Below are positions 2,252 through 60,011 of a stretch of DNA of 64,000 nt, one piece after another. The position numbers were made by a program, and so were the translations under genes. Source of the DNA: a bacterium. Its GTDB lineage: Bacteria; Patescibacteriota; CPR2; UBA1875; JAJYID01. The first letter of the stretch is position 1, and each line of letters opens with the position of its first letter. The DNA lies in contig JAJYLR010000001.1 of the NCBI GenBank assembly GCA_021787535.1, positions 83,648 to 147,647 of the forward strand, written 5' to 3'. Below the pieces are notes generated by a model. It made no database searches. It saw nothing but the letters and a program-made list of their open reading frames with translations, and was not told the origin of the DNA.

Positions 2252-2253
2252 TG

Positions 2254-5336: not shown

Positions 5337-5648
5337 ATGTGTAATCAAGTTTCTAAAGTAGCTTTGCTTAACGATCAGTTCAGAAGATCGGGCCAAGGAG
5401 TAACCTTGACTTGCGATGTGGCGGAAATAGCTGATCTGTCCGGACTGATGAAGAAAGTCCGCTCATTCAAGGAATTTAATAAAAATAACGATCCTTGGAA
5501 TGAGCATGACTTTGGAAGACTGAATTGGAAAGGTGAAAGGGTCTTCTGGAAAATCGACTATTTCAACAAGACTCTTGATGAATGGGAAGATCCGCTATCT
5601 CCCGACTGTAAAAGGCTAATGACCGTGATGCTCGCTGAAGATTACTAG
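5337..5648 (+). CDS. Hypothetical 103-aa protein with a WNEHDFGRL motif, reminiscent of small plasmid-borne DUF3768-type proteins
   Basis: ORF followed by a hairpin plus T-run terminator. The DUF3768 family guess is from memory of an HDFG motif only. Confidence 0.35.
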   Translation: MCNQVSKVALLNDQFRRSGQGVTLTCDVAEIADLSGLMKKVRSFKEFNKNNDPWNEHDFGRLNWKGERVFWKIDYFNKTLDEWEDPLSPDCKRLMTVMLAEDY

Positions 5649-5671
5649 AAGCTAAACAGCCAAACAAATTA

Positions 5672-5707
5672 AGCCCTGAGAGTTTAGGCTCTTGGGGCTT
5701 TTTTTGT
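5672..5707 (+). terminator. Rho-independent terminator
   Basis: aagccc-tgagagtttaggctcttg-gggctt hairpin followed by tttttttg. Confidence 0.6.
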
Positions 5708-5814
5708 GGCTGGGGTTAATTGATTGTAAATGAGCTTTCATAAAAACTTCAGGCCGCCCTGTAGGGCGGCCTTGATTGGTGCGTGTTTTTGCTGGGGCAG
5801 CAGCGAACTTTCGA

Positions 5815-6369
5815 TTACCGATTCCATATAGATCTAATACCGACTGAATTCATATATTTACTTTGTTCACGAATATGGCCGATTAACCGATGAACAACAC
5901 TATTAAGACGTTCATCGTGTACTCTCTGTCCCTCATTATAAAGATCTTGATATAGGGCACCGAACACTAAAGCCAACTCGTAATGTGCTCTCGGAACCTC
6001 TTGACCAGACCCAGCGGAGTCGAGATCGTTTATGGCAACAAATGATCCTTTGCAAAACCACTTGTTGCAAAAATCCCACCACTCTCCTGTTATCTTACTT
6101 ATCTGGGAAGGTGCGAGGTGTTGATAACCAAAAGCTCCCCTGATGGGAATCGGGCAAAAGGGGTACTCAGTGTAGAAATGAACACTCGTCAGATTTAAGG
6201 GATTAGTGGTAGTTGTGCACAAGTTGAGCAAATCTACCCTGACCATTCCATGAAGGTCAGTGACTCCATCATGGAAAAACTTAACGCGAATTATTATTTT
6301 CTTTTCAAGTGTTTTTAGGAGACTATTATTTAGCTGTGCTGTTTTCATCCGCGTCCTTTCAATCACCAT
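5815..6369 (-). CDS. Hypothetical protein (184 aa)
   Basis: Clean ORF with no recognisable motifs, sitting inside the accessory block. Confidence 0.4.
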   Translation of the reverse strand: MVIERTRMKTAQLNNSLLKTLEKKIIIRVKFFHDGVTDLHGMVRVDLLNLCTTTTNPLNLTSVHFYTEYPFCPIPIRGAFGYQHLAPSQISKITGEWWDFCNKWFCKGSFVAINDLDSAGSGQEVPRAHYELALVFGALYQDLYNEGQRVHDERLNSVVHRLIGHIREQSKYMNSVGIRSIWNR

Positions 6370-6675
6370 TGGAATTTCACCAGTTGGCTATGATAAGGTT
6401 CTGGCCGTTTGAATCACCATTGGACTAATCCAGATGGCTATCTGGCCCTGACAACTCTCCTGCCCGAGAGTACAAGGATTATACTATATTTAAGCCATTT
6501 CCTCAACCCTGATTTGTAACTCGAATATAAAGAAGAGTTATCCTGAAATTTCTCATTATTTTTGTAACCTAGCTTTAAATAAGTTTTGAAGAGACGAACA
6601 AAATAAAACTCCCAAAACGGGAGTTTATTTGAAACTTGTTTAAAGATTGGTGGCAAATGCACCATATAACCATAG

Positions 6676-7443
6676 TTATATTCTCTTCCATATATCCCCG
6701 GTAAGGCCAAACTGCCTTGCCTTGGCTTCGGTCGTCAAATGGATTGCCAGTTCCGGTTCATCCAACAGGGCAAGTCTGGTTTTGAAATAGCGCTTCACAT
6801 AAGTTAGTACGTCGTTGCTTGGGCAGATTATCAAAATAGTTGGAAAGTCCGTTTCTGTCTCAGCTTCCCAGTCGCTCCACTGATAAAAAGAAAGATATTT
6901 TCTGACTCTTTGCCTTAATCTTTCCTTTGGCACATTGTAAAGTATCTCCAAGAAATAATCTTTGGTTTGATTCTTGGTCGTTTGCCGAATATAGGCGGTT
7001 GGCGAGAGGTCTTTCAAGAGTTCCCCCGAGGGGTGATTATCATACTCGCTTTTCACACTCACTTCGAATCTCACTTTCCGGCTGTCTCTGTTTGTTAGAT
7101 CAAGGCAAATGTCGGCAAGCAAAAGACAGGAATTTATGAAAGAAACTGATCTTTCATTTTCCCTGTAATATTTCTGGACTGTTTTGACAGATATATTTTT
7201 ATGCTCCTTTAAATAACGGATGCCGGCTTTGGCGAGATGGTACACGGCCGGCTGAGTGTTTTTGCAAGAAGGCTTAATATATTCTTTTTTGCTCAAGTCT
7301 TTCAGCCACCTGTTTATTCCTGCTTCATCTTTATGACGCAAAAATCTTTGGATCTGAATGCGATTTAAGAACCTGTAACGAAATAAAAGAGATATAATCT
7401 CTCCCTGCCTTTTGGTTATGTCTGTTTCTTCTGTGTTAGCCAT
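6676..7443 (-). CDS. Replication-relaxation family protein (winged-helix, plasmid/ICE-associated)
   Basis: The N-terminus TDITKRQGEIISLLFRYRFLNRIQIQRFL is typical of the replication-relaxation family. It is 255 aa and adjacent to the coupling-ATPase gene. Confidence 0.5.
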   Translation of the reverse strand: MANTEETDITKRQGEIISLLFRYRFLNRIQIQRFLRHKDEAGINRWLKDLSKKEYIKPSCKNTQPAVYHLAKAGIRYLKEHKNISVKTVQKYYRENERSVSFINSCLLLADICLDLTNRDSRKVRFEVSVKSEYDNHPSGELLKDLSPTAYIRQTTKNQTKDYFLEILYNVPKERLRQRVRKYLSFYQWSDWEAETETDFPTILIICPSNDVLTYVKRYFKTRLALLDEPELAIHLTTEAKARQFGLTGDIWKRI

Positions 7444-7584
7444 TGGTTTAATTGTTCTTTCAAAAATGGATATATTAGCTTATACAATTCTGCCAATCCC
7501 TTCCTGCACCTTTCTTGTATGGGTAGAGGTAAAAGAATTAAGATGTTTTGAACTTGAAAATTGCAAATTTTTGTCGCAGCAAGA

Positions 7585-15832: not shown

Positions 15833-17380
15833 TTAACGGTTGATACGCAGAACCTCGTAGTTGCCAAACTCTTTCTCGGGATGGTAGTGGTTTAGCATGT
15901 AGAGAATGACTTTTTTATTCTGGTAATAAACGTTTTTTGGGTCTTTTGCTATAATCCAGTACTTTGGCTTTGACTTTTCCATATCGCTGATAAAGGTGTC
16001 ATCGAGATGGAAGCCGTAGTTGTCACGATTATCGAGAAGGAGGACGCTTGCCGAAACATACCTGGAGCCGGCATCGCGCTCAGTCATGCGGTATAGGACT
16101 GCACCGTATGTATAAGCTTCGATTTTATCATTAGGGCTGGAATTTGCCTTCACGTAGTCGGCAATTTCCTGATACTGGTTCAGGTCTGTTTTTGCCGAAC
16201 CGGAAAAGAAATTCAAAAGCTCCTTATTAGATATGCCGAAAGAGACGAGCATCATAGCCAAAAGGATTAAAACGACAGCAAAATTTTTGGGTTTCGCAAG
16301 GTTTAGGAAAATATTTCCGCCGTAGGCAAAAATGAGGACAAAAAAGGGCATGCCGATCAGGAAATAGTAGGGATAAAATGATCCGACACCGAAGCAGGCG
16401 ATCACAGCAGCAACAGAACCGATTAAAATAAAGCGGTAAAACGTATCGGACTTTATTTTCTTTAAATCCTTTAAGAGATAAATAGCGAATGTAGCCAGAG
16501 CAAGGAAAAAAGGAGCAATTATCAAAATGAAAATCTTGTGGGGCGAGACATCGCCGCTCAAGGCGCTTTTGGCATACTTGGAACTGAAGGCGACCGCAGC
16601 AACCCAAAAATCGTTTAGGGCATTATGCGCCTTGAAGTAGAAAATCCAAAAGGCGGTTTGAAGGAGAAAAGGGATACCGAATATCAGGTAATTTACAATG
16701 AATTTCTTGAAACTCTTGTAACTTAGGAGGAATATTTCAATGATGATCGGCAGGGAAAGAAGCGAAAAGTTTTCTTTAAGATAGAAAAGCACTGAGAGGC
16801 AGATACCGGAGAGAAAGAGCCATCCTAAATTTGAAATTTGAAATTTGAAATTTTTATTGTCTGACATTTGATTTTTGATGATTGAATACCACTTGAAGAA
16901 TGCTAGAAGCATCAAAATTAAAAAGATGAGACCGAAATTTTCGCAGTTATTACCGCTTGATGTGAACTGAGATAGATTTCGCCAGAAAACATAAAGAAGC
17001 AGAGAAATCCTCACTATTTTATCTGCGTTTTCCTTGAAGAAATTTTTAGAGAATAACTTTGCCAGCTTATAAAAAAGGAAAGTATCAAAGACAGCAAGTA
17101 CGGTTAGAAATATGCGGTGAAGTACGAGATTACCCCCGAAAAGTATGCTCATTAAAGCGTTGAATTCAAAGATAATCGGAGGTTTGTGATCCCAGGCATT
17201 TACATATAGAAGGCCGCCATGCGCGATTGTCTTTCCTACGTAGTAAAAGATCCAGTGATCTGAATCATATGGATATAACCAGACCGCCAATCTCGTAACT
17301 ATGAAAACGAGAATAAGCGTAATCCAAAATACCTTCTTATTTTCTAGAAATTTATTAAACCCGCTTTGAATTTTTTGCAT
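15833..17380 (-). CDS. Polytopic membrane protein, GT-C-type glycosyltransferase-like (ArnT/PMT-like); assignment tentative
   Basis: 515 aa with more than 10 predicted TM helices. It contains an in-frame heptamer repeat that encodes NFKFQISNLG. Confidence 0.45.
   Translation of the reverse strand: MQKIQSGFNKFLENKKVFWITLILVFIVTRLAVWLYPYDSDHWIFYYVGKTIAHGGLLYVNAWDHKPPIIFEFNALMSILFGGNLVLHRIFLTVLAVFDTFLFYKLAKLFSKNFFKENADKIVRISLLLYVFWRNLSQFTSSGNNCENFGLIFLILMLLAFFKWYSIIKNQMSDNKNFKFQISNLGWLFLSGICLSVLFYLKENFSLLSLPIIIEIFLLSYKSFKKFIVNYLIFGIPFLLQTAFWIFYFKAHNALNDFWVAAVAFSSKYAKSALSGDVSPHKIFILIIAPFFLALATFAIYLLKDLKKIKSDTFYRFILIGSVAAVIACFGVGSFYPYYFLIGMPFFVLIFAYGGNIFLNLAKPKNFAVVLILLAMMLVSFGISNKELLNFFSGSAKTDLNQYQEIADYVKANSSPNDKIEAYTYGAVLYRMTERDAGSRYVSASVLLLDNRDNYGFHLDDTFISDMEKSKPKYWIIAKDPKNVYYQNKKVILYMLNHYHPEKEFGNYEVLRINR
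16828..16855. repeat. Tandem heptamer microsatellite (AAATTTG)x3.5 inside the glycosyltransferase-like gene, in frame
   Basis: The repeat aaatttgaaatttgaaatttgaaattt is directly visible. The same CAAATTT/CCAATTT unit recurs in intergenic DNA and inside uvrD and acs. Confidence 0.8.
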
Positions 17381-17465: not shown

Positions 17466-18083
17466 TTGTTTGTTTCTTGGAAATTTAAAAATTGTGCTAT
17501 AATGAAATCTATGAAAAAGATACTGAAAAATAAAATAGTTCTGATGTTTGCTGCAGCTCTTGTCGCGGGTTTTGGGGGCACTGTTCTTTATTTATCGAAA
17601 ACTGTCCCTTCCACGAAAAATGATAATCAGAAAAACAATGTCAGTACGCAAAACAACCAGAAAAACACTAATCCCCAAACTGAAAAAGGCAATCTGCCTG
17701 CCGCAAATCAAACCCCGCCTCCCAAAACTTCCGTACAAGAACAGGCGCCTAACTCAACCTCAACAAATCTTGCTGTCCTTAATGGTTTCGTGACCGCCAC
17801 TAAATCAAGCCAGGACGGCTCTATCAGTTTTTCTTTTTATCTTGAAGGGTCGGGATATTACAGTATTCAAGAAGAGCAAAGTGGAAGTTGGCAGACCACG
17901 GAAAACAATATTTACTATCGAGGTACCGGCGGTTTAGACGCGGGCAGTATTCCGGCCGGACAGTCGTCGGTGACTGTAAGAGCTCTAAAAATAGAGAATG
18001 GCAAATATACAGCCGTAACAAAAGCATTTACAATACAGAGATCAGAGGTGGAAGCAGCCGGAGGGGTGAAAACGTATAATTAG
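17466..18083 (+). CDS. Secreted/anchored hypothetical protein with a Q/N/T-rich low-complexity region. The true start is probably the ATG at 17511 or 17502.
   Basis: Signal-anchor IVLMFAAALVAGFGGTVLYL. An extended -10 (tgctataat, 17493-17501) lies immediately upstream, implying a leaderless or short-leader transcript. Confidence 0.45.
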   Translation: MFVSWKFKNCAIMKSMKKILKNKIVLMFAAALVAGFGGTVLYLSKTVPSTKNDNQKNNVSTQNNQKNTNPQTEKGNLPAANQTPPPKTSVQEQAPNSTSTNLAVLNGFVTATKSSQDGSISFSFYLEGSGYYSIQEEQSGSWQTTENNIYYRGTGGLDAGSIPAGQSSVTVRALKIENGKYTAVTKAFTIQRSEVEAAGGVKTYN

Positions 18084-18266
18084 AGAATTTCTAAATCCGA
18101 ATTTCTAATCTCTAAACAAATTCAAAATAATAAAGATCAAAACATTTTGGATTTTGGACATTTGAATTTATAATTTGTTTAGGATTTCGATATTAGAGTT
18201 TAGAATTTACAATCAGAGAAATATAAGCTGGCTTGGGTTATCATAAAGTAAGGTAAGGAGATTATC

Positions 18267-19262
18267 ATGAAAGTAGCGATCAATGGTTTTGGCAGGATTG
18301 GACGGCAGGTATTTAAAATTTTAAATGAAAAATATCCCGATGTTGATATTGTAGCTGTAAATGATTTAACCGATACCAAGACTCTGGCATATCTTTTGAA
18401 ATATGATTCCGTCCATGGTTCTTTCGCGGGTACAGTTGATGCGGGTGCGGACTCTCTCACCGTGAATGGGGAAAAAGTTCAAGTTTTGGCCGAGAAAGAT
18501 CCTATTAATCTGCCTTGGAAAGATTTGGATGTTGATGTGGTCATCGAGTCGACCGGTTTCTTTACTGATGGCGAAAAAGCCAAAGCCCACTTGGATGCCG
18601 GAGCGAAGAAAGTCTTAATCTCAGCTCCTGCAACAAATCAGGATATTACAATCGTTCTCGGTGTCAATGAAGACAAGTATGACAAAGAAAAGCACCATAT
18701 TATTTCAAATGCCTCCTGCACTACAAACTGCTTGGCACCTATCATAAAAGTTTTAGTCGATAGCTTTGGTGTGAAAAAAGGACTTATGACCACTGTGCAC
18801 TCATATACAAACGATCAGCGAATTCTGGATTTGCCCCATAAAGATCTTAGGCGAGCCAGGGCGGCAGCACTCAATATTATTCCGACTTCTACCGGAGCGG
18901 CCAAGGCGCTGAAAGAAGTTATTCCTGAAGTTGATGGTATCCTTGACGGTATGTCAATCCGGGTACCAACACCGGATGTATCGGTGGTTGATTTAACTAT
19001 AGAACTTGGGCATGGTACTACTCCTGATGAGATAACAGCTAAGATGAATGAGGCAGCCGCTGGCAGGATGAAAGGTGTCTTAGAGGTTACGGACGAACAG
19101 CTAGTCTCGATGGATTTCAAAGGAAATTGCCACTCTTCTATTTATGACAGTTTGCTGACTAAAAACATTGGGGACAATCTTTTTAAGATCATCAGCTGGT
19201 ATGACAATGAATGGGGATACTCGAATAGATTGGCAGATTTGACGAGTTTTATTATGCAATAA
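18267..19262 (+). CDS. gap: Glyceraldehyde-3-phosphate dehydrogenase
   Basis: [11 protein letters not shown]-binding motif and the [12 protein letters not shown] active-site Cys. A strong aaggag RBS is present. Confidence 0.95.
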
Positions 19263-19297
19263 AAAGCTACTCTTTATTGGTTAAATTCCCCCTTTTT

Positions 19298-19427
19298 AAG
19301 TAACAAGTAACAAGAAACAATGACCAAACAAATTTCAAATTTCAAATTAGAAACAGGGAGAATATCTTTGTTATTTGTTGATTGTTATTTGTTTGTATCT
19401 TGCTATCTTGCGCCTTGTATCTTTGAG
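19298..19427. repeat. MITE-like ~130-bp imperfect palindromic element (copy 1) immediately upstream of pgk
   Basis: aagtaacaagtaacaagaaacaatgaccaaacaaatttcaaatttcaaatt ... gttatttgttgattgttatttgtttgtatcttgctatcttgcgccttgtatcttt. It is a paralog of 51931-52065 and shows internal inverted symmetry. Confidence 0.7.
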
Positions 19428-32772: not shown

Positions 32773-32780
32773 TAAAATTC

Positions 32781-32849: not shown

Positions 32850-32851
32850 AT

Positions 32852-37678: not shown

Positions 37679-37800
37679 AGAAAAGAGTAAAATAAGAATG
37701 ACTAATTACCAATATCTAATAACCAATCAATTCTAAAATTTAAAAATTAATTAATTGAAAATTGACTGGAAATTGGGACTTGAAAATTAGAAATTAAGGT

Positions 37801-37848
37801 TAAGGGATTCCTCGGCTTGTCGCTACCGCGAAGTCGCTCGGAATGACA
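37801..37848. repeat. Palindromic element type C, inverted copy of 20657-20703, upstream of ppsA
   Basis: gggattcctcggcttgtcgctaccgcgaagtcgctcggaatgacaaa is the reverse complement of the 20.66-kb copy, with 1-2 differences. Confidence 0.8.
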
Positions 37849-37863: not shown

Positions 37864-40395
37864 ATGAGTAAGAATATACTTTGGTTTAAAGAAGTCGGGA
37901 AAGACGACGGAGCAAGGGTTGGCGGTAAGGGTGCAAATCTTGGTGAGATGTTTAGTGCCGGTCTCCCGGTGCCGAACGGTTTTATCGTCACGGCGCAGGC
38001 TTACTTTGATTTTCTGGATCATACCGGGCTCAAGGCAAAGATTGCAGAAGCGCTTGAAGGCTTAAATGTTGAGGATTCCAAGGATCTGCAAGCGAGAGCG
38101 GAAAAGGTGCAGAGTTTAATAAAGAAGGCTGATTTCCCCCAGGACTTAGCTAATGAAATTACCAAAAATTACCACAAGCTTTCTGAAGAAGGCCAAAAGG
38201 AAAAGGGAAGGAGCAAAAAAGAAGATTCCGGTCAAGCCGGAATGACGGAAGATTCCCCCAATACCCAATACCCAATACCCAATACAGATCGACTGGATTC
38301 CCGCCTGCGCGGGAATGACAAGGCGGGCGTATATGTGGCTGTTCGTTCGAGCGCGACGGCCGAGGATTTGGCTGATGCGTCATTTGCCGGCCAGCAGGCG
38401 ACATACCTGAACATTCTTGGCGATATTCCTGTTTTGCATGCGGTTTTAAAATGCTGGGCGTCGCTCTTTGAAGCCAGAGCTATTTATTATCGCGAAGACA
38501 AAGGGTTTGACCAGCTGGAAGTGGGTATTGCAGTGCCGGTGCAGAAAATGGTCAACTCCGAAAAAGCGGGAGTTATGTTTACCATTGATCCTACAAATAA
38601 CGACATGGAGCATATTTCCATCGAAGCGGCTTACGGGCTTGGCGAAGTGGTTGTTCTGGGCGCCGTTACCCCGGATCGTTATCTGATTGATAAAAAAACC
38701 AGGCAAGTGACCGACAAGGAAATTCACAAACAGACTTGGATGCTAACCCGCGAAGGCGGCAATGCCGATACGGATAACACGGAAGACATCTCAAAGAATG
38801 GCGTCCCCGTACCGGAGGATAAGCAAGGATTGCAAAAGCTGAGCGATGACGAAATCTCACAGCTTACCGATCTGGCTTTGAAAATTGAGAAGCATTACGG
38901 CAAACCGCAAGACACAGAGTGGGCGGTCGAGGGCGGAAAAGTTTACATGACCCAGTCGCGACCGATAACGACATTGCCAAGTAAAGATGATCAGGCAGGA
39001 ATGGATTCCGGACAAGCCGGAATGACAAATGAAGGGCAGGATATTTCCGAGGCCAAAGTGATATTAAAAGGTTCGGCGGCATCAGTCGGGATGGCCGGGG
39101 GACCGGTAAAGATCATTCATTCGCCGAGCGAGATAGACCAGATCTTGGACGGCGATGTTTTGGTCACAGAAATGACCACCCCGGATTTCGTGCCGGCTAT
39201 GAAGAGGGCTTCGGCTATCGTTACTGATGAAGGCGGACGGACCTGCCATGCGGCCATTGTTTCAAGAGAACTTGGTATTCCTTGCGTTGTCGGGACTGAG
39301 ACAGCTACAACTACGCTTAAGGATTACCCGAAAGTAACCGTCGATGGCAAAAGCGGCGCGGTTTATGAAGGTAAGGTTAAATCTCAATCGGATTCTGGAC
39401 AGGATTCTGGACAAGCCAGAATGACGAGCTCAGAGCCAGCGCCGATAACTGCCACGAAAATTTATGTCAACTTGGGAGAACCGGAACTGGCCGAGAAAGT
39501 AGCGGCTCGCGACGTCGATGGGGTGGGCTTGCTGCGCGCTGAGTTCATTATCATGGAGTCCATCGGCGAACATCCCAAGAAAATGATCAAGGAAGGGCGC
39601 CAAGAGGAATATATTACAAAACTAGCCGAAGGACTGGAAACATTTGCCCGGGCCTTTGATCCAAGACCTGTTGTTTATAGGGCTACTGATTTTAAGACTA
39701 ACGAATATCGAGGGCTAAAGGGCGGAGAAGAGTTCGAGCCCGAGGAAGACAATCCGATGATCGGCTATCGCGGCTGCTTCAGATACTTAAAAGATCCGGA
39801 AGAATTTTCATTGGAGCTTGAGGCGATTAAAAAAGTGCGCCAAAACCACAGAAATCTCCACCTGATGATTCCCTTTGTTCGCCGCACCGATGAGTTTCAA
39901 AAAGTTAAAGCAATGGTCGAAAAGAGTGGATTAAATAAAGAGAGCGACCCCGACTTTAAACTTTGGATTATGGTGGAGGTGCCATCGGCTGTTATCGAAA
40001 TAGAAAAGTTCTGCCAGATGGGCATCGACGGCGTGTCAATCGGCTCAAATGACCTGACCCAGCTGACTTTGGGATTAGATCGGGATTCAAATCTTGTGGC
40101 AGAGGAGTTTGATGAGCGAAACGATGCCGTCCAATGGATGATTAAAAGAACGGTGGAAACATGCAAAAAATACGGCGTTACTTGCTCGATCTGCGGCCAG
40201 GCGCCAAGCGTTTATCCCGAAGTAGCGCAGAAAATGGTGGAGTATGGCACCACATCCATTTCCGTAAACCCCGATATGATTGAGAGCACGCGCAAACTGG
40301 TGGCGCAGGTTGAAGAGAAGATTTTGATGAATGAAATGAGCGCAGTTCAGGCGAAATTGTCTGAATTGGAACAAAAGATAGAGACAAATGAGTAA
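37864..40395 (+). CDS. ppsA: Phosphoenolpyruvate synthase (pyruvate, water dikinase)
   Basis: N-terminal ATP-grasp VGGKGANLGEM, phosphohistidine domain GGRTCHAAIVSRELGIPCVVG, and a C-terminal PEP-utilising domain SICGQAPSVYPE...SVNPD. A ggaggg RBS is present. It contains three in-frame repeat-element insertions. Confidence 0.85.
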   Translation: MSKNILWFKEVGKDDGARVGGKGANLGEMFSAGLPVPNGFIVTAQAYFDFLDHTGLKAKIAEALEGLNVEDSKDLQARAEKVQSLIKKADFPQDLANEITKNYHKLSEEGQKEKGRSKKEDSGQAGMTEDSPNTQYPIPNTDRLDSRLRGNDKAGVYVAVRSSATAEDLADASFAGQQATYLNILGDIPVLHAVLKCWASLFEARAIYYREDKGFDQLEVGIAVPVQKMVNSEKAGVMFTIDPTNNDMEHISIEAAYGLGEVVVLGAVTPDRYLIDKKTRQVTDKEIHKQTWMLTREGGNADTDNTEDISKNGVPVPEDKQGLQKLSDDEISQLTDLALKIEKHYGKPQDTEWAVEGGKVYMTQSRPITTLPSKDDQAGMDSGQAGMTNEGQDISEAKVILKGSAASVGMAGGPVKIIHSPSEIDQILDGDVLVTEMTTPDFVPAMKRASAIVTDEGGRTCHAAIVSRELGIPCVVGTETATTTLKDYPKVTVDGKSGAVYEGKVKSQSDSGQDSGQARMTSSEPAPITATKIYVNLGEPELAEKVAARDVDGVGLLRAEFIIMESIGEHPKKMIKEGRQEEYITKLAEGLETFARAFDPRPVVYRATDFKTNEYRGLKGGEEFEPEEDNPMIGYRGCFRYLKDPEEFSLELEAIKKVRQNHRNLHLMIPFVRRTDEFQKVKAMVEKSGLNKESDPDFKLWIMVEVPSAVIEIEKFCQMGIDGVSIGSNDLTQLTLGLDRDSNLVAEEFDERNDAVQWMIKRTVETCKKYGVTCSICGQAPSVYPEVAQKMVEYGTTSISVNPDMIESTRKLVAQVEEKILMNEMSAVQAKLSELEQKIETNE
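38221..38325. repeat. Composite in-frame insertion in ppsA: type A half-element (gattccggtcaagccggaatgac), (CCCAATA)x4 heptamer, and type B element (ggattcccgcctgcgcgggaatgac)
   Basis: Read directly from the sequence. It is translated as EDSGQAGMTEDSPNTQYPIPNTDRLDSRLRGNDKAG. Confidence 0.85.
39003..39028. repeat. Type A half-element (ggattccggacaagccggaatgacaa) in frame in ppsA
   Basis: Translated as DSGQAGMT. Confidence 0.8.
39391..39425. repeat. Type A half-element with a 12-bp internal duplication (gattctggacag-gattctggacaagccagaatgac) in frame in ppsA
   Basis: Translated as SDSGQDSGQARMT. Confidence 0.8.
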
Positions 40396-41246: not shown

Positions 41247-42547
41247 AGATAAAAAATATAAAAGCAAATGAAATACTGGATTCACGGGGCAATCCCACCG
41301 TTTCTACCGAGATAGAGTTGGAAAACGGCATAATTTCTCATGCATCGGTTCCCAGCGGGGCGTCGACCGGTATTCATGAGGCGCATGAGCTGCGTGACGG
41401 CGACATGAAACGTTTTGACGGCAAAGGAGTCTTAAAGGCCTGTCAAAACATTGAGCAGATTATACAGCCGGAAATTAAAAAAATTGACATTGAAAATCAG
41501 GCGGAAATCGATAGTAAAATGTGCGAGCTGGACGGCACAAAAAACAAGGAAAAACTCGGAGCAAATGCTATTTTAGCGGTTTCGATCGCGGCTCTTAGGG
41601 CTCATGCCGCACATAACGGTAAAGAGCTGTATGAGATTATCGGCGAGCTTTACGGATTTCATGATTTTCGCCTTCCCAAGCCCTTGTCGGTTATTCTAGA
41701 AGGCGGCAAACATTCGGATTCTAATTGTGAAATCCAAGAATTCATGATTCAAATCGAGGAAGAGAAAATCGAGGAAAATTTACGGAAGATTGAACTTGTT
41801 TACCATTCGCTTGAGCAGGTGCTTGAAAGCCAGGGTAAAAATACCAACATTGGTTATGAAGGAGCATTTGGTCCGAATTTAACCTCGAACCGGGAGGGGC
41901 TTGATCTGATTATGCAGGCGATTGAAATGTCCGGATTAAAGCCCCGATATGATGTGCGTATTGCCCTCGATATTGCTGCCAGTGAATTTTACGATACTGA
42001 GAGCAGCCAATACCTTCTAAAAAGTGAGAACATTGCTCTGCGCGGGAGCCAGATGGTGGCTTACAATGAAGAGTTAGCGAGGGATTATCCTATCCTTTCT
42101 ATCGAAGACGGCATGTACGAGGATGACTGGGAAGGATGGCAAGCGCTCTATGAGCGTCTGGGCGATAAAATCATGCTGGTTGGCGACGATCTGTTTGTGA
42201 CCAACACCGAGCGCATTAGAAATGGCATTGATCGCCATGCTGCTAACGCAGTTTTGATTAAGCCGAATCAGATTGGTACAGTGACAGAAACCATCGAAGC
42301 TGTCAAAATGACCAAATTTGCCAGTTGGGAACCGATTGTTTCGCACAGGAGCGGAGAGACGAACGATAGTTTTATCGCCGATCTGGCCGTGGCGATCAGC
42401 GCCAAGTATATTAAAGCCGGCGCGCCGGCCAGAGGCGAGAGAGTAGCGAAATATAATCGGCTGATGGAAATTTCCTCTGTCATTCCCGCCCCCGATCGGG
42501 TCGAGGGTAAAGCTTCGGCGGGAATCCAGGAAGATAATTCAAAATGA
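41243..42547 (+). CDS. eno: Enolase
   Basis: ILDSRGNPTV N-terminus, the SHRSGETND signature and IKPNQIGT. Confidence 0.95.
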   Translation: MKIKNIKANEILDSRGNPTVSTEIELENGIISHASVPSGASTGIHEAHELRDGDMKRFDGKGVLKACQNIEQIIQPEIKKIDIENQAEIDSKMCELDGTKNKEKLGANAILAVSIAALRAHAAHNGKELYEIIGELYGFHDFRLPKPLSVILEGGKHSDSNCEIQEFMIQIEEEKIEENLRKIELVYHSLEQVLESQGKNTNIGYEGAFGPNLTSNREGLDLIMQAIEMSGLKPRYDVRIALDIAASEFYDTESSQYLLKSENIALRGSQMVAYNEELARDYPILSIEDGMYEDDWEGWQALYERLGDKIMLVGDDLFVTNTERIRNGIDRHAANAVLIKPNQIGTVTETIEAVKMTKFASWEPIVSHRSGETNDSFIADLAVAISAKYIKAGAPARGERVAKYNRLMEISSVIPAPDRVEGKASAGIQEDNSK

Positions 42548-42737
42548 AAATTTAAAATTAAAAAGATGATATCAAAATCCCAAGAATCAATTATCAATGT
42601 TCAATTCATCCAAATCTCAATGATTAAAAATAATTTGAAAATTGAAAATTCTTAAAGTTCTATTGTTTTCGCGAAATTTGAGCTATTATTGAATAAACGA
42701 ACTGATCGTTAAAAATAGAGGAGGGAGGTGAAAAAAT

Positions 42738-47231: not shown

Positions 47232-49571
47232 TTGATTGAAAATTCAAAAATCGGAGGGGCTTTGCTAGATCGTTTCTTCAATCCAAAGAGTGTAGCTGTT
47301 ATCGGGGCTTCTCATCATAAAGAGAAGCTTGGGTTTTTGGTTTATGACAATATCAGAAAATACGGTTATAAAGGAAAACTTTATGGAGTGAATATCAAGG
47401 GCGGTTCCGCACATATTTCGCGTAAAAAATCAGGAGCGCAAAATATGTGCGGAATTCCACTCTACAAAACTGTAGGCGATATCCCTGGGCCGATAGATTT
47501 AGCTGTTGTGGTGATACCTGCGAAAGCTGTACCTCAAATAGTTAAAGATTGCGGTAAAAAAGGAATAACTTCTGTCATTATTATCTCGGCCGGGTTTTCT
47601 GAAACTGGAGCAGAAGGCAAAAAGTTAGAGGAAAAAATTGCCGATTTGTCACATAAATACGGTATCAGAATCTTGGGGCCGAACTGTCTCGGCATCATCG
47701 ACTCTTGGAGCAAAATGAACGCCTCTTTTGCCGAAAGTATGCCGGACAAGATGAAGATTTCTCTTCTTTCCCAGTCAGGAGCCATCTGCACGGCTATTTT
47801 AGACTGGGCCAATAGCGAAGAAATCGGTTTCTCCAGATTTATTTCTTTGGGCAATAAGCTTGATATCGATGAAAATGATGTCTTGGCTTATCTAGCCCGT
47901 GACACAAAAACCAAAGTTGTCCTGGCATATCTCGAAAGCATTGCCGATGGCCAGAAATTTATGGATAATGCTAGAAATCTTGCCTTGAAAAAGCCATTTA
48001 TCATGGTGAAGTCAGGCCGAACCAGCGAAGGCGCCAAAAGCATCTCTTCTCATACGGGCAGTATTGCCGGGTCGGATATTGTTATCGATACCGCTCTTCG
48101 CCAGAGCGGAGTGATACGGGCTGAGAGCTTAGAGGACCTCTTTGATCTGGCAAAAATATTTGCCTTTTCACCGGAAATGAAAGGCAAGAACGTTGCTGTT
48201 ATTTCAAATGCCGGCGGTCCGGCAGTTATGCTTGCCGATACGATTGGTCAAAGCCGCTTAAAGCTGGCTAAGTTTGAGCCAAAAACCCGTAAAATTCTAG
48301 AAGAGACATTGCCTCCTGAAGCTGCGACTCATAATCCTGTAGACGTCATCGGTGATGCCAGAGCCGATCGTTATGAAACTGCTACTTGCGAGGTTTTAAA
48401 AGATGAAAATGTTGATGCGGCCATAGTTGTTTTAACACCCCAAGTTATGACAGAGATTGAAGCGACAGCTAAAGTCATTAACAAGGCAAAAAAGTACGGA
48501 AAACCTTTGGCGGTATCTTTTATTGGCGGAGAAAAAGTCGGAGATGGCAGGAAAATTCTCGAAGACTTTGAAATACCTTCATATGAGTTTCCGGAGAGAG
48601 CGATCAAAGCGCTAGAAGCACTATTTGAGTACTATGAATTTAAGAGACACTATGGTCTTTGTCATTCCGACTGCCACCACGTGAGTTGCAAGCGGAGGAA
48701 TCCCTTAAAGAATAGCCAATTTCCAATAACCAATGACCAATCAAGCTCTAATAATCAGATGTCAAACAAAGGTGGTCATTCTGGGGACGGCAGGACCCCG
48801 GAATCTAATACAGATAAGGATTCTGGACAGGTCAGAATGACGAACAACAGGCAAAAGGTATCTGAAATTATCGGACCGGTATTTAACCGGCGCCAAAAGC
48901 TTATCACAGACGGAAGTTCGAGCGCTTTTGATGTTTTTGACGCCTATGGTATCAGCACTATCAAAAGAGCATATGGTCTGGGACTAAAGGATTTGAAAAA
49001 GAAATCGGAAGAACTGGGGTTTCCGCTTGTTGCGAAGACTTGCGCCGAAGGCGTTTTGCACAAAACGGATATTGGCGGAGTCAAGTTGGGTATGAGAGAT
49101 GAAAGCGAACTGCAAAAAGCGTATTTTTCAATTTGTAATAAAGTGCGAAAAGCTGGTTTCGAGGAGGGTTCGGATCGGGTTGACATTTATAAACAAGAAG
49201 AGGACGGCGTCCAAATATTTCTGGGCGCAAAAAAGGATTCCAGTTTTGGACCGCTCATAATTTTTGGTTTAGGCGGAATATTCGTCGAGGCGCTTAAAGA
49301 TTTTTCATATAGAATCGCGCCGGTTACGCATACCGAGGCCAAGAGAATGATCGGCGAAATAAGATCGCAGAAAGTTCTAAACGGTTTTCGGGGCATGCCG
49401 GAAGTTGATCGGGACAAAGTGGCAGATGCAATCGTTGGTTTGTCCCAGCTTATGCTCGACTTCCCGGAAATCAAAGAAGTAGATATTAATCCCTTAATGG
49501 CAACGGATAAAAAATGCGTTGCCATAGACGGAAAAATAATTTTGGACTTAGAAGTAGACCATGGTTTCTAA
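47232..49571 (+). CDS. Acetyl-CoA synthetase (ADP-forming), fused alpha/beta type. The real start is probably the TTG at 47265, which has a GGAGG RBS.
   Basis: The CoA-binding N-terminus FFNPKSVAVIGAS, succinyl-CoA-synthetase-like flavodoxin domains and a C-terminal ATP-grasp. A ~60-aa repeat-element insertion sits in the inter-domain linker. Confidence 0.85.
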   Translation: MIENSKIGGALLDRFFNPKSVAVIGASHHKEKLGFLVYDNIRKYGYKGKLYGVNIKGGSAHISRKKSGAQNMCGIPLYKTVGDIPGPIDLAVVVIPAKAVPQIVKDCGKKGITSVIIISAGFSETGAEGKKLEEKIADLSHKYGIRILGPNCLGIIDSWSKMNASFAESMPDKMKISLLSQSGAICTAILDWANSEEIGFSRFISLGNKLDIDENDVLAYLARDTKTKVVLAYLESIADGQKFMDNARNLALKKPFIMVKSGRTSEGAKSISSHTGSIAGSDIVIDTALRQSGVIRAESLEDLFDLAKIFAFSPEMKGKNVAVISNAGGPAVMLADTIGQSRLKLAKFEPKTRKILEETLPPEAATHNPVDVIGDARADRYETATCEVLKDENVDAAIVVLTPQVMTEIEATAKVINKAKKYGKPLAVSFIGGEKVGDGRKILEDFEIPSYEFPERAIKALEALFEYYEFKRHYGLCHSDCHHVSCKRRNPLKNSQFPITNDQSSSNNQMSNKGGHSGDGRTPESNTDKDSGQVRMTNNRQKVSEIIGPVFNRRQKLITDGSSSAFDVFDAYGISTIKRAYGLGLKDLKKKSEELGFPLVAKTCAEGVLHKTDIGGVKLGMRDESELQKAYFSICNKVRKAGFEEGSDRVDIYKQEEDGVQIFLGAKKDSSFGPLIIFGLGGIFVEALKDFSYRIAPVTHTEAKRMIGEIRSQKVLNGFRGMPEVDRDKVADAIVGLSQLMLDFPEIKEVDINPLMATDKKCVAIDGKIILDLEVDHGF
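48661..48842. repeat. Composite in-frame insertion in the acs linker: type C variant, a CCAAT-type heptamer stretch, and a full type A element (gtcattctggggacggcaggaccccggaatc-N13-gattctggacaggtcagaatgac)
   Basis: Read directly. It is translated as CHSDCHHVSCKRRNPLKNSQFPITNDQSSSNNQMSNKGGHSGDGRTPESNTDKDSGQVRMT. Confidence 0.85.
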
Positions 49572-51925: not shown

Positions 51926-51930
51926 TTAAA

Positions 51931-52065
51931 AAGAAGTAACAAGATACAAGAGACAATGACCAAACAATACTCAAAATTCAATTTTCAAGAAGCAAACGAC
52001 GTCGGTTTGTTATTTGGTTATTGTTCCTTGTTTGTACCTTGCTTTCTTGCATCTTGTATCTTTAA
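51931..52065. repeat. MITE-like ~135-bp element (copy 2) immediately upstream of the OFOR gamma gene. Paralog of 19298-19427.
   Basis: aagaagtaacaagatacaagagacaatgaccaaacaatactcaaaattcaattttcaag ... gtttgttatttggttattgttccttgtttgtaccttgctttcttgcatcttgtatcttt. Confidence 0.7.
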
Positions 52066-53371: not shown

Positions 53372-53377
53372 GATTTT

Positions 53378-54139: not shown

Positions 54140-56647
54140 ATGGCGGATTTTTTAGATGATTTAAATGAGATGCAGAAAGAGGCGGTCAAAACTACCGAAG
54201 GGCCCCTTCTTATTTTAGCCGGGGCCGGCAGCGGCAAGACCAAAGCCCTGACTTACCGCATCGCTTACTTAATTAGCGAAAAAAATGTCGATCCGGAGCG
54301 GATTTTGGCCGTGACTTTTACCAATAAAGCGGCCAAGGAAATGGTCTCGAGAGTTGAGAAACTACTCTCGAGAAATAACCAATTTCCAAGTCCCAATTTC
54401 CAATCAATTTTCAATGATCAAAATTCAAAAAGTCTGGATTCCCGCCTTCGCGGGAATGACAAGGAGGGAAAGGGATCCGTCGACTCCCATTCGGCTGCGC
54501 TCAGGGCAGGCTTTCGCGAAGTCGCTCAGAATGACAGAAAAGGGGAGCAAGAAGTCTGTCGAAATGACCCACGCACCGAAAATGGTGCGGGGCAAGCAAT
54601 ACAGAATACCGAATACTCAATACAGCATACTGTCACCGGCCGCAGGCCTGTCATGGGTACTTTTCACTCTGTTTGCGTCAAAATTCTACGGCGGGAGATA
54701 GGCCATCTCGGCTATAAATCGAGCTTTACCATTTATGACTCGGGCGACTCCAATAGGGCGGTAAAGATTGCCATGAAAGAACTCTCTATTGATGAGAAGA
54801 AATTCAATCCCAGAACAATACAAAATTACATCTCCTCGGCAAAAAATGAGCTGATTGGCGAGAAAGAGTACGCTGCGCTCGTCAACGGCTATATCCAGGA
54901 AATGGCTTCCAAAGTGTACTTTGAATACCAAAAAATTCTTAAAAACGCCCATGCGCTGGACTTTGACGATCTGATTATGAAGACGGTAGAAATCTTCCAA
55001 AAATTTCCAGAAATCTTGGAGAAATATCAGAAGCAATTCAAATATATTCATATAGATGAGTATCAGGACACAAACCACGCCCAGTATGTTTTTTCAAAAC
55101 TGCTGGCAGCTAAACATGAAAATATCTGTGTGGTGGGGGACGACTGGCAAAGTGTTTATGCATTTCGCGGGGCGAACTTCCAGAACATCCTAGATTTCGA
55201 GAAGGATTATCCGAATGCAAAAGTGGTCAAACTTGAGCAAAATTATAGATCAACAAAAACCATTTTGGATGCTGCCCATCATATTATCAAAAAGAATGAA
55301 AACCGAAGCGACAAAGAGCTCTGGACTGAAAACATTCTGGGTGTTCCTATCCTGACATTTGAGGCAAAAGACGAGGTAGATGAAGGAAGATTTATCATTC
55401 AGGAAATTTCGAGTTCAGCCCGCGATCTTTCTGATTTTGCTGTTTTATACCGCACAAATGCCCAGTCAAGAAGCCTTGAAGAACAGTTTCTAAAAGCCGG
55501 CATGAAGTACAGGATTTTCGGAGGAGTGAGGTTCTATGAGCGAAAGGAAATTAAAGATATTATCGCATACCTCAGGTTCATTCAGAATCCAAATGACTGG
55601 GTGGCGCTCGAGCGGATTATCAATGTTCCGTCGAGAGGAATAGGGGCAGCTAGTTTGAAAAAAATAAAGGAATTTTTTTCAAATAATTTGCAATTTCCAA
55701 TTTCCAATTTTCAATCAAATTCCAATAACCAAATTCCAAACAAAAGCCGTCATTTTGGGGACGATAGGACTCCAGAATCAAACTCGGATAAGGATTCTGG
55801 TCAAGCCAGAATGACGGAAGGTAAGGGTGACTTGGTTGGTATACTGGAAAAAGTGAAATTCAGCAATATTCTTTCCGGCAAAGCGCTAGCCGGATTTAAG
55901 TCATTTATGAAAGCCATTATTGAGCTCGAAGATCAGAAAGATAAATTGCAACTGGTGAAGTTCATCGATCAGGTTATGAAAAAAACCGGCTACTATGATT
56001 CGCTTGATGACAAAACTATCCAAGGTGAAGAAAGGCAGGAAAACCTGAAAGAGCTTTTGTCGGTAGCAGAGGAATTTGTCAAGGATAGAGAAGACTTCGG
56101 TCTTGAGGATTTTCTCGAGGAAGTGGCTCTTATTTCCGATATTGATAACTACTCGGAAGACGAGCAGTCCGTGGCGCTTATGACCTTGCATTCGGCCAAA
56201 GGGCTCGAGTTTCCCTGTGTTTTCATTGCCGGGATGGAAGAGGGGATCTTTCCGCATTCTCGTTCACAGCTTGATATCGAAGAAATGGAAGAAGAGCGCA
56301 GATTGGCATATGTCGGTATCACAAGAGCAAAAGAAAGAGCGTATCTGGTTAGCGCTCGCAGGCGTCTTCTCTATGGAAACTATCAGTCCAATCCGGCGTC
56401 GAGATTCATCTCTGATATTCCCGGTGAGCTCAAGAAAGACATTAACCGGTTTGAAACGTCATTGGACTCAAAGATTTATGAAAAGCAAATCCCGCAGTTT
56501 GCTCCCGGAGAAAAAGTTCTGCATGACAAGTTTGGCGTAGGCATAGTCCAAGACGTCAAAGGCGATGAGATGACTGTATCTTTTGAAAAGGTGGTGGGTC
56601 TCAAAGTTCTCTCTACCATTTACGCGCCGATTGAGAAGATAAGATGA
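54140..56647 (+). CDS. uvrD: ATP-dependent DNA helicase UvrD/PcrA (SF1). The ORF-track start at 54074 lies inside the upstream terminator; the ATG at 54140 is preferred.
   Basis: Motif I LLILAGAGSGKTKALTYRIAYLI, then GTFHSVC, DEYQDTN and later SF1 motifs. tataat at 54127-54132 sits 7 nt before the ATG, implying a leaderless mRNA. There are two large in-frame repeat insertions. Confidence 0.85.
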   Translation: MADFLDDLNEMQKEAVKTTEGPLLILAGAGSGKTKALTYRIAYLISEKNVDPERILAVTFTNKAAKEMVSRVEKLLSRNNQFPSPNFQSIFNDQNSKSLDSRLRGNDKEGKGSVDSHSAALRAGFREVAQNDRKGEQEVCRNDPRTENGAGQAIQNTEYSIQHTVTGRRPVMGTFHSVCVKILRREIGHLGYKSSFTIYDSGDSNRAVKIAMKELSIDEKKFNPRTIQNYISSAKNELIGEKEYAALVNGYIQEMASKVYFEYQKILKNAHALDFDDLIMKTVEIFQKFPEILEKYQKQFKYIHIDEYQDTNHAQYVFSKLLAAKHENICVVGDDWQSVYAFRGANFQNILDFEKDYPNAKVVKLEQNYRSTKTILDAAHHIIKKNENRSDKELWTENILGVPILTFEAKDEVDEGRFIIQEISSSARDLSDFAVLYRTNAQSRSLEEQFLKAGMKYRIFGGVRFYERKEIKDIIAYLRFIQNPNDWVALERIINVPSRGIGAASLKKIKEFFSNNLQFPISNFQSNSNNQIPNKSRHFGDDRTPESNSDKDSGQARMTEGKGDLVGILEKVKFSNILSGKALAGFKSFMKAIIELEDQKDKLQLVKFIDQVMKKTGYYDSLDDKTIQGEERQENLKELLSVAEEFVKDREDFGLEDFLEEVALISDIDNYSEDEQSVALMTLHSAKGLEFPCVFIAGMEEGIFPHSRSQLDIEEMEEERRLAYVGITRAKERAYLVSARRRLLYGNYQSNPASRFISDIPGELKKDINRFETSLDSKIYEKQIPQFAPGEKVLHDKFGVGIVQDVKGDEMTVSFEKVVGLKVLSTIYAPIEKIR
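54370..54655. repeat. ~285-bp composite in-frame insertion in uvrD between helicase motifs I and Ia: heptamer stretch, type B element, an inverted type C variant, and AATAC-type repeats
   Basis: Translated as a ~95-aa insert: SRNNQFPSPNFQSIFNDQNSKSLDSRLRGNDKEGKGSVDSHSAALRAGFREVAQNDRKGEQEVCRNDPRTENGAGQAIQNTEYSIQHTVTGRRPV. The type B copy at 54436-54463 matches 20736-20763. Confidence 0.85.
55684..55814. repeat. Composite in-frame insertion in uvrD: (AATTTCC)-type heptamer stretch plus a full type A element (gtcattttggggacgataggactccagaatc-N13-gattctggtcaagccagaatgac)
   Basis: Translated as NLQFPISNFQSNSNNQIPNKSRHFGDDRTPESNSDKDSGQARMT. Confidence 0.85.
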
Positions 56648-59289: not shown

Positions 59290-60011
59290 TGCTGTATGTA
59301 GTTTCTACTCCGATTGGTAATCTGGATGACATCACTCTTCGCGCGCTCGAAACCTTAAAGAATGTCGATCTTGTTGCCTGCGAAGATACGCGCCATACAA
59401 AAATCCTGCTTGATAAGCATAGTATCCCTTTTTGTCATTCTGGGGACGGTAGGACGCCAGAATCTGATTCTGGGCAAGCCAGAATGACGAGCCGGTCACG
59501 GCTCGTCAGCTATCATCAGCATTCAGGGTCAGTAAAAACCGAGAAAATTCTAACGATGCTGAAAGATGGCAAAGATGTTGCTCTTGTGACTGATGCCGGT
59601 ACGCCCGGTATTTCTGATCCTGGCAGTAAGTTAGTTGCCGAAGCAGCAGCAGATGGTATCGAGATTACATCCATTCCGGGCCCTGCCGCCTTTGTGAGTG
59701 CTTTAAGCGTTTCTGGATTTGACACTTCTGAATTTATTTTTATCGGATTTCTTCCTCACAAAAAGGGACGGCAAACAAAGCTGAAAGAAATAAGCGGTGA
59801 AAAGCGGACAGTTGTGTTGTATGAATCGGTACATCGGATAAAAAAGTTGTTCGGAGAGCTGTCAGAAATTATTCCAAACAGAGAGATATGTGTTTGCCGT
59901 GAACTGACTAAGAAATTTGAAGAGATCTATCGTGGAAAACCATCAGAGCTCATGGATCAAATTATAGAAAAAGGAGAATTTGCGGTTGTTATAGGAGGCA
60001 GAAATGATTAA
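59289..60011 (+). CDS. rsmI: 16S rRNA C1402 2'-O-methyltransferase (tetrapyrrole-methylase fold)
   Basis: LYVVSTPIGNLDDITLRALETLKNVDLVACEDTRHT matches the RsmI N-terminus. It contains one in-frame type A insertion. Confidence 0.85.
   Translation: MLYVVSTPIGNLDDITLRALETLKNVDLVACEDTRHTKILLDKHSIPFCHSGDGRTPESDSGQARMTSRSRLVSYHQHSGSVKTEKILTMLKDGKDVALVTDAGTPGISDPGSKLVAEAAADGIEITSIPGPAAFVSALSVSGFDTSEFIFIGFLPHKKGRQTKLKEISGEKRTVVLYESVHRIKKLFGELSEIIPNREICVCRELTKKFEEIYRGKPSELMDQIIEKGEFAVVIGGRND
59434..59488. repeat. Full type A element, short form (gtcattctggggacggtaggacgccagaatc-tgattctgggcaagccagaatgac), in frame in rsmI
   Basis: Translated as CHSGDGRTPESDSGQARMT. Confidence 0.85.

Follow-up and report, generated by a model that had tools for sequence, protein, structure and literature searches.

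Tandem heptamers of cyanobacteria (STRR) are reportedly mostly intergenic and carry embedded or adjacent hairpins of 21-27 nt (SDR), for which Elhai et al. in 2008 are said to have described compensatory changes and signs of recent mobility. The REP/BIME elements and the dRS3/NIME repeats of Neisseria are mosaics of clustered short palindromes and other motifs and are essentially extragenic. SDRs are reported to be confined to Nostocaceae (PMC5861425), and the REPINs of Proteobacteria depend on the RAYT transposase (PMC3116915). As outlined in PMC10969869, the Rickettsia palindromic elements (RPEs; Ogata et al. 2000) are dispersed repeats that lie in frame in housekeeping genes. Phase-variable simple-sequence contingency loci are found in Neisseria, Haemophilus and Campylobacter (general background in PMC4692102). 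Here we describe heptamer tracts in a 64-kb stretch of DNA from a bacterium of the CPR2 lineage (contig JAJYLR010000001.1, positions 83,648 to 147,647; the whole stretch is called the window below). The tracts lie both in spacers and inside genes such as ppsA and uvrD/pcrA, and they are probably modules of a dispersed, mosaic repeat family that are translated as disordered loops of frozen length.

All heptamer tracts named in the original prediction were found, with coordinates differing by 1-5 nt (Table 1); the 7-nt units differ from site to site. Six genic tracts lie in frame, in the genes for a GT39-like glycosyltransferase, ppsA, an ADP-forming acs and uvrD/pcrA. The claim that they are read through also stood, in that the open reading frames (ORFs) stay open and Pfam domains were matched on both flanks of each tract. 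The tract in the glycosyltransferase gene (16827-16853) encodes NFKFQISN, within the longer translation context ...DNKNFKFQISNLG / ...SDNKNFKFQISNLGW.... With 27, 29, 31 nt and so forth, the tract lengths are no multiples of 21. In the window, 13 non-overlapping period-7 arrays were counted against 1.5 expected from third-order Markov simulations, an approximately 9-fold excess, and the same type of simulation gave 0.3 period-14 arrays where 3 were found. Windows with 13/14 matches at a lag of 7 numbered 5 (0.02 expected); other lags yielded 0-2. Over the window and 11 loci of the clade, the tract density was 0.94/kb in spacers and 0.13/kb in genes, i.e., 7-fold lower in genes. The unit was free of stop codons in every frame of the sense strand in 18 of 23 genic tracts, compared with 7-8 of 21 intergenic units per strand. 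Of the perfect runs, 8 of 27 genic and 0 of 30 intergenic ones reached at least 26 nt, which is no more than suggestive of longer runs in genes (Mann-Whitney P = 0.09, a comparison that orthologous duplicates partly inflate).

The gene neighbourhood is syntenic in relatives, which thus supplied orthologous DNA for comparison. The closest named relatives are metagenome-assembled genomes (MAGs) assigned to 'candidate division WS5', CPR2, Howlettbacteria and 'Patescibacteria group'/Saccharimonadia. Loci of relatives are numbered L001 and so on; L004 is NCBI GCA_027334665.1, L005 is ENA ERZ27233565, and L009 is a contig of MAG DBS2-1.bin143. Protein alignments were made for UvrD (A1), the glycosyltransferase (A2) and PpsA (A3), and nucleotide alignments for the acs insert with the insert at uvrD site 2 (A4) and for the module described next (A6).

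The AT-rich block of the family spans ~30-60 nt with a 7-nt periodicity and the consensus (CCAATTT)x4-CCAATCAATTTCCAAT.ATCAAATT, and variants such as CAAATTT and CCCAATA. Eight sequences align without internal gaps to one module of ~50 nt, non-periodic positions included (A6). In the window these are the tracts of uvrD site 1, uvrD site 2 and acs and both arms of the palindrome at 37695-37800, and in the relatives the glycosyltransferase loops of L007 and L089 (as the reverse complement) and uvrD site 2 of L002. By blastn, 33/35 nt of uvrD site 1 agree with the right arm of this palindrome upstream of ppsA, read as the reverse complement. Over ~150 nt, the inserts of acs (48690-48860) and uvrD site 2 (55670-55835) align gap-free in a common frame (A4), and both contain, in this order, a heptamer stretch, the hairpin GTCATTyTGGGGACG..AGGAC.CC.GAATC and the hairpin GGATTCTGG.CA.G.CAGAATGAC. 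In spacers, inverted pairs of the module form long AT-rich hairpins directly after or before genes; the element at 19295-19415 is paralogous to the one at 51934-52059 (77% identity over 127 nt), with further copies in spacers of L002 and L008. Judged from these alignments, most genic tracts derive from a dispersed module that may be copied in one orientation or the other, and are not locally grown microsatellites. The earlier label "microsatellite" is therefore misleading for the uvrD, acs and L007/L089 loop tracts.

The genic tracts all lie within segments that are missing from relatives of 65-85% identity (A1, A2, A3), and relatives without the combination found in the window often hold another repeat combination at the identical site. 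The glycosyltransferase tract is situated in a hypervariable loop between transmembrane helices (A2). The window protein is itself a weak Pfam match; its relatives carry PF13231 and are named family 39/ArnT-like. In relatives without an insert the loop consists of 8-10 residues, and across the others it contains CAAATTT x4, (GGAAATT)x4-5, GC hairpins or mixtures of these, GGAAATT being related to CCAATTT in reverse orientation. L004 has an identical CAAATTT tract, in L006 the tract is cut short and hairpins follow it, and L008 and the more distant relatives have none. The single loop thus holds both orientations, CAAATTT in the sense direction in the window and, opposite to it, GGAAATT in the sense direction in L007 and L089. 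Two glycosyltransferase fragments begin or end in this loop, L096 beginning with residue 175 and L102 breaking off after residue 171 and a hairpin.

UvrD has 835 residues in the window and 700-710 in relatives of 78-84% identity, the extra residues forming two blocks that both comprise heptamer tracts and hairpins. Three other UvrD relatives have different repeat combinations at exactly those two sites (A1 and the DNA), and in L002 and L003 tracts related to the (AATACAG)-type tract at 54598-54630 occupy the equivalent position. When UvrD was modelled with AlphaFold2 from a 64-sequence alignment, the inserts (residues 82-166 and 520-561) appeared as coil with pLDDT <50 between flanks of >90. 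The inserts are thus predicted to occupy surface-exposed, structurally permissive positions. PpsA has three insert sites (A3), and the acs insert, which the acs orthologs of L001 and L003 do not have, is found in an inter-domain linker. At insert junctions, NQFPISNFQSNSNNQIPNK and DSGQAR are predicted to be insert-encoded peptides. Intron- or intein-like excision was considered and rejected: all examined inserts are in frame and stop-free, which would be unnecessary if they were excised. In distant members of the candidate phyla radiation (CPR), in-frame heptamers (AAGTCAA, AAAAATC, AAACGGA) were observed at ppsA site 2 (L053 3937-3962, L063 2590-2622, L069 3937-3962, L083 3940-3971 and L065 3977-4009), and an in-frame CAGAAAA tract at ppsA site 3 (L049 4439-4469); the ppsA tracts of the distant CPR have no GC hairpins.

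The other building block is a GC-rich hairpin of 23-45 nt overall. The 64 kb contain ~25 short hairpins of 23-26 nt with the conserved ends GATTC...GAATGAC, or GTCATyCC...GGrATC in the other orientation, together with longer relatives, and at least 12 of them are read in frame in genes, as DSGQA(R/G)MT or DSRLRGND. The variants show compensatory changes (CCGG..CCGG vs CTGG..CCAG; CGC..GCG vs CGT..ACG). Compared with shuffled sequences, the hairpins fold more stably (z = -3.4 and -3.8); the glycosyltransferase tract by itself shows no structure (z = -0.65). The heptamers do travel with palindromes, as had been proposed: of 19 tracts, 7 have a GC-rich hairpin no more than 80 nt away, where 1.8 +/- 1.3 would be expected (P ~0.002). 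Among genic tracts the proportion is 5/6, the glycosyltransferase tract having no adjoining hairpin in the window. Two hairpins flank the CCCAATA tract of ppsA, which is left unpaired as the spacer between them. Hairpins also occur as inverted pairs (48775-48841, 59434-59488 and the GAPDH-PGK spacer of L004), and terminal inverted repeats are seen in that the composites begin with GTCATyCC and end with GGrATGAC, while the intergenic AT-rich elements are long palindromes.

The hairpins are clade-specific, with 0.11-0.18/kb compared with 0.007-0.009/kb in loci of more distant CPR and DPANN. Period-7 arrays are still common in those distant loci, where hairpins are few, and the tracts therefore do not need hairpins; rather, hairpins seem to land in or beside tracts. 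One such arrival could be followed, as the glycosyltransferase genes of L004 and L006 are 98.5% identical and yet L006 has, in place of the distal 20 nt of the tract, 113 nt with two hairpins, one of which is near-identical to the hairpin at 42479 of the window. On this comparison the arrival is recent. No wider recombination patch was found around the L004/L006 junction, with only 12 mismatches in ~1600 nt outside it. Two further observations concern the hairpins. At 39390-39413, the hairpin 5' arm is perfectly duplicated over 12 nt (GGATTCTGGACA x2), in frame and translated DSGQDSGQ. The genes for enolase, the POR alpha subunit, MetRS and a phosphoribosyltransferase end within a hairpin or heptamer tract (42479-42547, 51108-51141, 62754-62778 and 34690-34705, respectively), where the repeat supplies the last codons and the stop codon.

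Comparison with L009 revealed an unexpected degree of nucleotide identity in some of the repeat blocks. The two loci are 70.5% identical over 8.5 kb, with 80.8% in ppsA and 58.6% at third codon positions. The longest perfect run is nevertheless 180 nt (37658-37837), spanning the intergenic heptamer palindrome and its hairpin, and a second one of 64 nt (38224-38287) spans a hairpin and the CCCAATA tract. These runs coincide exactly with the repeat blocks, the coding DNA between them showing ordinary divergence. Protein-level constraint cannot explain 21 codons without a synonymous change (0.586^21 ~1e-5). The 90-nt palindrome upstream of ppsA is wholly missing in L010 and L011. Against L004, the glycosyltransferase tract lies within a 41-nt perfect run, and the spacer 18044-18343 is 87-94% identical with flanking genes at 51-80%; other repeat spacers have diverged to an ordinary degree, e.g., the ppsA 3' spacer with 58-80% identity. 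Read from these alignments, either both lineages would have had identical modules arrive or be overwritten at the same sites in recent times, or nucleotide-level constraint may act on some copies.

The length of the tracts was unchanged in all five orthologous comparisons, which were made between consensus assemblies. The glycosyltransferase tract has the same four copies in the window and L004 at 84% protein identity; the ppsA tract is the same in the window and L009 and has an equal 29 nt with 5 substitutions in L010; uvrD site 2 of the window runs colinear with that of L002; (TGGAAAT)x4 is alike in L007 and L089; and the AAGTCAA tract has 5 units in each of the distant lineages L053, L063 and L069, with substitutions only. 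Where tracts differed among relatives, single bases had been substituted or a whole block had been replaced, and in no case was the difference one of +/-7 nt. Thus, where the original prediction had offered phase-variation switches or, as the likelier option, strongly selected fixed lengths, its arithmetic that a +/-7-nt change shifts the frame is correct and the fixed lengths are supported, whereas the switches are not: there is no +/-7 allele or frameshifted ortholog, the tracts have 3-5 units and the hosts are housekeeping genes of a small genome. That slipped-strand mispairing by one heptamer reversibly switches the glycosyltransferase, ppsA, acs and uvrD appears very unlikely. The repeat unit of 7 inside ORFs is indeed no multiple of 3, three of the tracts repeat ~4 units perfectly, and a membrane glycosyltransferase would be plausible as a phase-variable gene. 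However, the orthologous pairs show no length difference despite 11-34% protein divergence, the aligned orthologs (A1-A3) are full-length, and the truncated glycosyltransferase matches that were checked (L096, L102) stop at contig ends. In addition, many of the short tracts are imperfect, they lie mid-gene within inserts and away from the 5' end, and the substitutions in the L010 and L002 tracts destroy their slippage potential. The hosts are single-copy genes of central metabolism or repair in a ~0.6-Mb genome, with only the GT39-like gene fitting a surface-type function. A metagenome scan with the glycosyltransferase protein as sole query returned no relatives, and a scan with alignment A2 returned full-length relatives of at most 67% identity and otherwise fragments, with no strain-level length series among them. 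Hardly credible at all is an assembly artefact, by which repeats would have been collapsed or made chimeric in a MAG. The contigs of relatives do break exactly at the glycosyltransferase-loop repeats, but base-for-base the same tracts recur under different accessions (the window, L004, L005 and L009, which may not all be independent assemblies), and the ORFs are in frame across the tracts in all records.

The near-perfect conservation of some blocks would also fit functional DNA or RNA elements, such as terminators or attenuators, RNA-stability structures or protein-binding arrays, with translation being incidental. The 180-nt and 64-nt runs stand out from a background of 70-81%, as does the spacer 18044-18343, and the compensatory changes and folding of the hairpins, as well as the position of intergenic copies next to gene ends or starts, would agree with a function. 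On the other hand, the next relatives L010, L011, L012 and L008 have no trace of the blocks where the window carries them, other copies such as the ppsA 3' spacer have diverged ordinarily, no Rfam family was matched in the window at the gathering threshold, and the glycosyltransferase tract alone is unstructured. Part of the conserved 18186-18269 may, from reading the sequence, be the GAPDH promoter and ribosome-binding site. We consider a functional element quite improbable as the explanation. A somewhat better case, although still an unlikely one, can be made for microsatellites that grew locally by polymerase slippage in AT-rich, unconstrained linker codons, with no mobile module involved. 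Heptamers are over-represented in many bacterial genomes, which passages of PMC4692102 citing Mrazek 2007 attribute to polymerase slippage, and period-7 arrays make up 23-49% of the tandem repeats in distant CPR/DPANN loci without hairpins. Different units are found at the same ppsA linker in different lineages, and perfect runs of at least 26 nt, seen in genes only, would fit single +21-nt steps. This difference in run length is weak, however, with some orthologous tracts counted twice, and stepwise growth by +7 in an essential ORF passes through frameshifts. Moreover, the uvrD, acs and glycosyltransferase-loop tracts have non-periodic positions in common, both among themselves and with the palindrome arms, and the acs and uvrD composites are colinear over ~150 nt including two hairpins. 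In-situ slippage is a reasonable explanation for the ppsA-linker units of the distant CPR and perhaps for the CAAATTT and CCCAATA tracts.

We return to the dispersed, mosaic repeat family translated as frozen-length disordered loops. The dispersed copies, the status of the genic tracts as inserts relative to other genomes, their in-frame placement and their conserved length are direct observations. The family would consist of two block types, the AT-rich 7-nt-periodic modules and the GC-rich hairpins, and have its home mainly in spacers. Now and then a module, or a composite of module and hairpin, would be copied into a gene, and copies would survive there only when they fall into a permissive surface loop or inter-domain linker, amount to a net multiple of 3 nt and are oriented so as to be stop-free. 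A 7-nt unit repeated at least three times is read in all three frames, and read-through is thus possible only if the unit is stop-free in every frame. Selection, we infer, has acted as the filter on gene copies, and the excess of stop-free genic units is its signature. The retained copies would be translated as disordered Q/N/S/P-rich loops. As +/-7 slippage causes a frameshift in an essential gene and would be selected against, the length would stay frozen; thereafter the tract would change by point substitution or whole-block replacement alone, and hairpins would arrive preferentially within or at the edges of tracts.

Several points weigh against this account. The CAAATTT x4 and CCCAATA tracts of the window fit the ~50-nt module less well and could have grown in situ, and low-complexity sequences align by chance more easily, although A6 does include non-periodic positions. 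We infer the translation of the inserts from frame and stop-codon filtering. No transposase or RAYT-like gene was present among the 29 window proteins scanned (~half of the genes; the rest of the genome was not searched for RAYT), nor any such family in the precomputed Pfam families of the syntenic loci; relatives carry IS110-type and IS1595-type genes nearby. No target-site duplication was visible at the L004/L006 junction, which represents one recent event. Distant CPR carry the unrelated units AAGTCAA, AAACGGA and AAAAATC at the same ppsA linker, which resembles local origin. Finally, 100%-identical blocks amid ~80%-identical genes are not predicted by an old insert under neutral decay.

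The identical blocks raise the tentative and rather doubtful possibility that the modules and the GATTC...GAATGAC hairpins form an active, non-autonomous copy-and-overwrite system in Patescibacteria, whose action may resemble homing, gene conversion or short recombination patches and may be aided by natural competence. If so, identical sequence would be written into the same sites of genomes that differ by ~20% in their genes, accounting for the base-perfect 180-nt and 64-nt blocks between species, and the system would offer a general route to new disordered loops in core enzymes of streamlined bacteria. Under the repeat-family reading itself, selfish or structural repeat DNA would have become part of the coding sequence for essential enzymes, and this in an ultra-small genome, where streamlining is usually assumed to purge it. 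Such repeats lengthen proteins, create spurious low-complexity "domains" (DSGQARMT, DSRLRGND, QFPISNFQ), break metagenome assemblies at gene-internal sites and are liable to be mistaken for phase-variation loci. Both filled and empty sites are available in the clade, as are strain-level events, which makes the copying mechanism approachable.

Table 1. Positions of heptamer tracts, modules, palindromes, hairpins and the glycosyltransferase host gene in the window
Feature	Position	Strand	Remarks
GT39/ArnT-like integral-membrane glycosyltransferase, host gene	15833..17380	-	515 aa
Perfect (AAATTTG)x3.9 on + strand, glycosyltransferase gene	16827-16853		CAAATTT x3.9 on coding (-) strand
Heptamer-armed hairpin upstream of GAPDH, intergenic	18084..18215	+	94% identical to L004
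AT-rich palindromic element, GAPDH-PGK spacer, intergenic	19295..19415	+	Arms with 7-nt periodicity; fold z = -2.2
CAAATTT x2.9	19329-19348		Intergenic; in loop of palindrome 19295-19415
AT-rich palindrome upstream of ppsA, intergenic	37695..37800	+	Both arms are copies of the ~50-nt module
GC-rich hairpin (GGGATTCC...GGAATGAC) adjoining palindrome upstream of ppsA	37805..37847	+	
23-nt hairpin GATTCCGGTCAAGCCGGAATGAC in ppsA	38224..38246	+	Translated DSGQAGMT
Perfect (CCCAATA)x4.1, ppsA insert site 1	38257-38285	+	Translated PNTQYPIPNT
Hairpin GGATTCCCGCCTGCGCGGGAATGAC in ppsA	38295..38319	+	Translated DSRLRGND; none in L009
Hairpin, ppsA insert site 2	39003..39026	+	Linker after ATP-grasp domain
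Hairpin with internal 12-nt tandem duplication, ppsA insert site 3	39390..39425	+	Translated DSGQDSGQARMT
Hairpin followed by heptamer-like tract	42479..42564	+	3' end of enolase gene and start of spacer
Composite acs insert	48661..48841	+	Hairpin 48661-48702, module 48708-48770, hairpins 48775-48805 and 48818-48841
Imperfect tract, ADP-forming acs-type gene	48711-48741		79% matches (AATAACC/AATGACC/CCAATTT); translated NSQFPITNDQS
AT-rich heptamer-armed palindrome, intergenic	51930..52065	+	Paralog of 19295-19415
Heptamer module, uvrD insert site 1	54372..54425	+	
uvrD/pcrA tract, site 1	54379-54404		Translated NNQFPSPNFQS
GC-rich hairpins, uvrD insert site 1	54436-54460 and ~54473-54535	+	
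(AATACAG)-type tract x4.7	54598..54630	+	3' end of uvrD insert site 1
Composite uvrD site-2 insert	55683..55815	+	Module 55683-55745, hairpins 55749-55779 and 55792-55815
uvrD/pcrA tract, site 2	55685-55744		Translated NLQFPISNFQSNSNNQIPN
Hairpin pair in frame in TP_methylase gene	59434..59488	+	Same two hairpins as acs and uvrD site 2, without module

Other features of the window were recorded alongside the repeats. The 371-nt intergenic region 53250-53620 is predicted to fold very stably (minimum free energy -147.8 kcal/mol) with a long near-perfect hairpin at 53391-53465, and could represent either a further repeat or a structured RNA that is not annotated; for 53150-53700 nothing meaningful was obtained from Rfam at E<1, and no tRNA or tmRNA was found. 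The palindrome AAGGACNGTCCTT has four exact + strand copies, all in spacers (32758, 33877, 58092 and 58114), and 6 matches with one mismatch allowed (0.09 expected), including two tandem copies at 58086-58126; it is a candidate operator or terminator motif, separate from the heptamer-hairpin family. A 20-nt tandem repeat (ATTTTGTATAGATACTTGAC x2.5) at 32777-32827 lies directly upstream of a MerR-family regulator gene (32831-33574), and a 28-nt tandem repeat x2.0 (85% matches) at 46046-46098 lies within ORF 45353-46345. The first part of the window (1-10422) is a low-GC (36-40%) minus-strand block with no GC hairpins or heptamer tracts. Among its products are a type III restriction Res-like helicase (running past the window start), an N6/N4 DNA methylase, DUF3768, Replic_Relax and a VirD4/TraG-like coupling protein, and the block is likely an integrated conjugative or mobile island. 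Within it, 735-2253 was considered as an ORF-free region and rejected, as a long minus-strand ORF extends past the window start.

In the library searched, no literature linking miniature inverted-repeat or similar repeat elements with CPR/Patescibacteria was found. By analogy, the present case resembles several known repeat systems, most closely the RPEs and the cyanobacterial heptamers with SDRs, and would be a member of none, given the different phylum, the fact that no sequence relationship was shown and the frequent intragenic location. With contingency loci it shares a tandem repeat within an ORF whose unit is not a multiple of 3; unlike them, it shows no length polymorphism, has a low copy number and housekeeping hosts, and lies in dispensable mid-gene inserts instead of at the 5' end. 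The short imperfect palindromes, alternating orientation and mosaics are reminiscent of REP/BIME/REPIN and dRS3/NIME elements, but the hairpins here, in contrast to REP/REPIN, are not extragenic only. An ATTCCC-N8-GGGAAT element in our sequence fits what we take to be the dRS3 consensus pattern, a resemblance that may serve as a lead. The hairpin-tract-hairpin arrangement in ppsA and the hairpins inside the CAAATTT tract of L006 are like the STRR and SDR combination; the host, however, is CPR/WS5-like and not of the Nostocaceae, and the units and hairpin sequences differ. To our knowledge, in-frame read-through in core enzymes is not a hallmark of the cyanobacterial system. The RPEs are similar in this respect, also being a short dispersed family that lies in frame in unrelated housekeeping genes of a small genome as well as between genes, and contributing extra peptide stretches that the protein fold can accommodate. 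RPEs are single units of ~100-150 bp in Alphaproteobacteria, whereas the elements described here are mosaics of AT-rich modules and 23-45-nt GC hairpins in a Patescibacteria-like host, and their composition varies at one site between relatives. The likeness to RPEs is one of analogy, not of membership.

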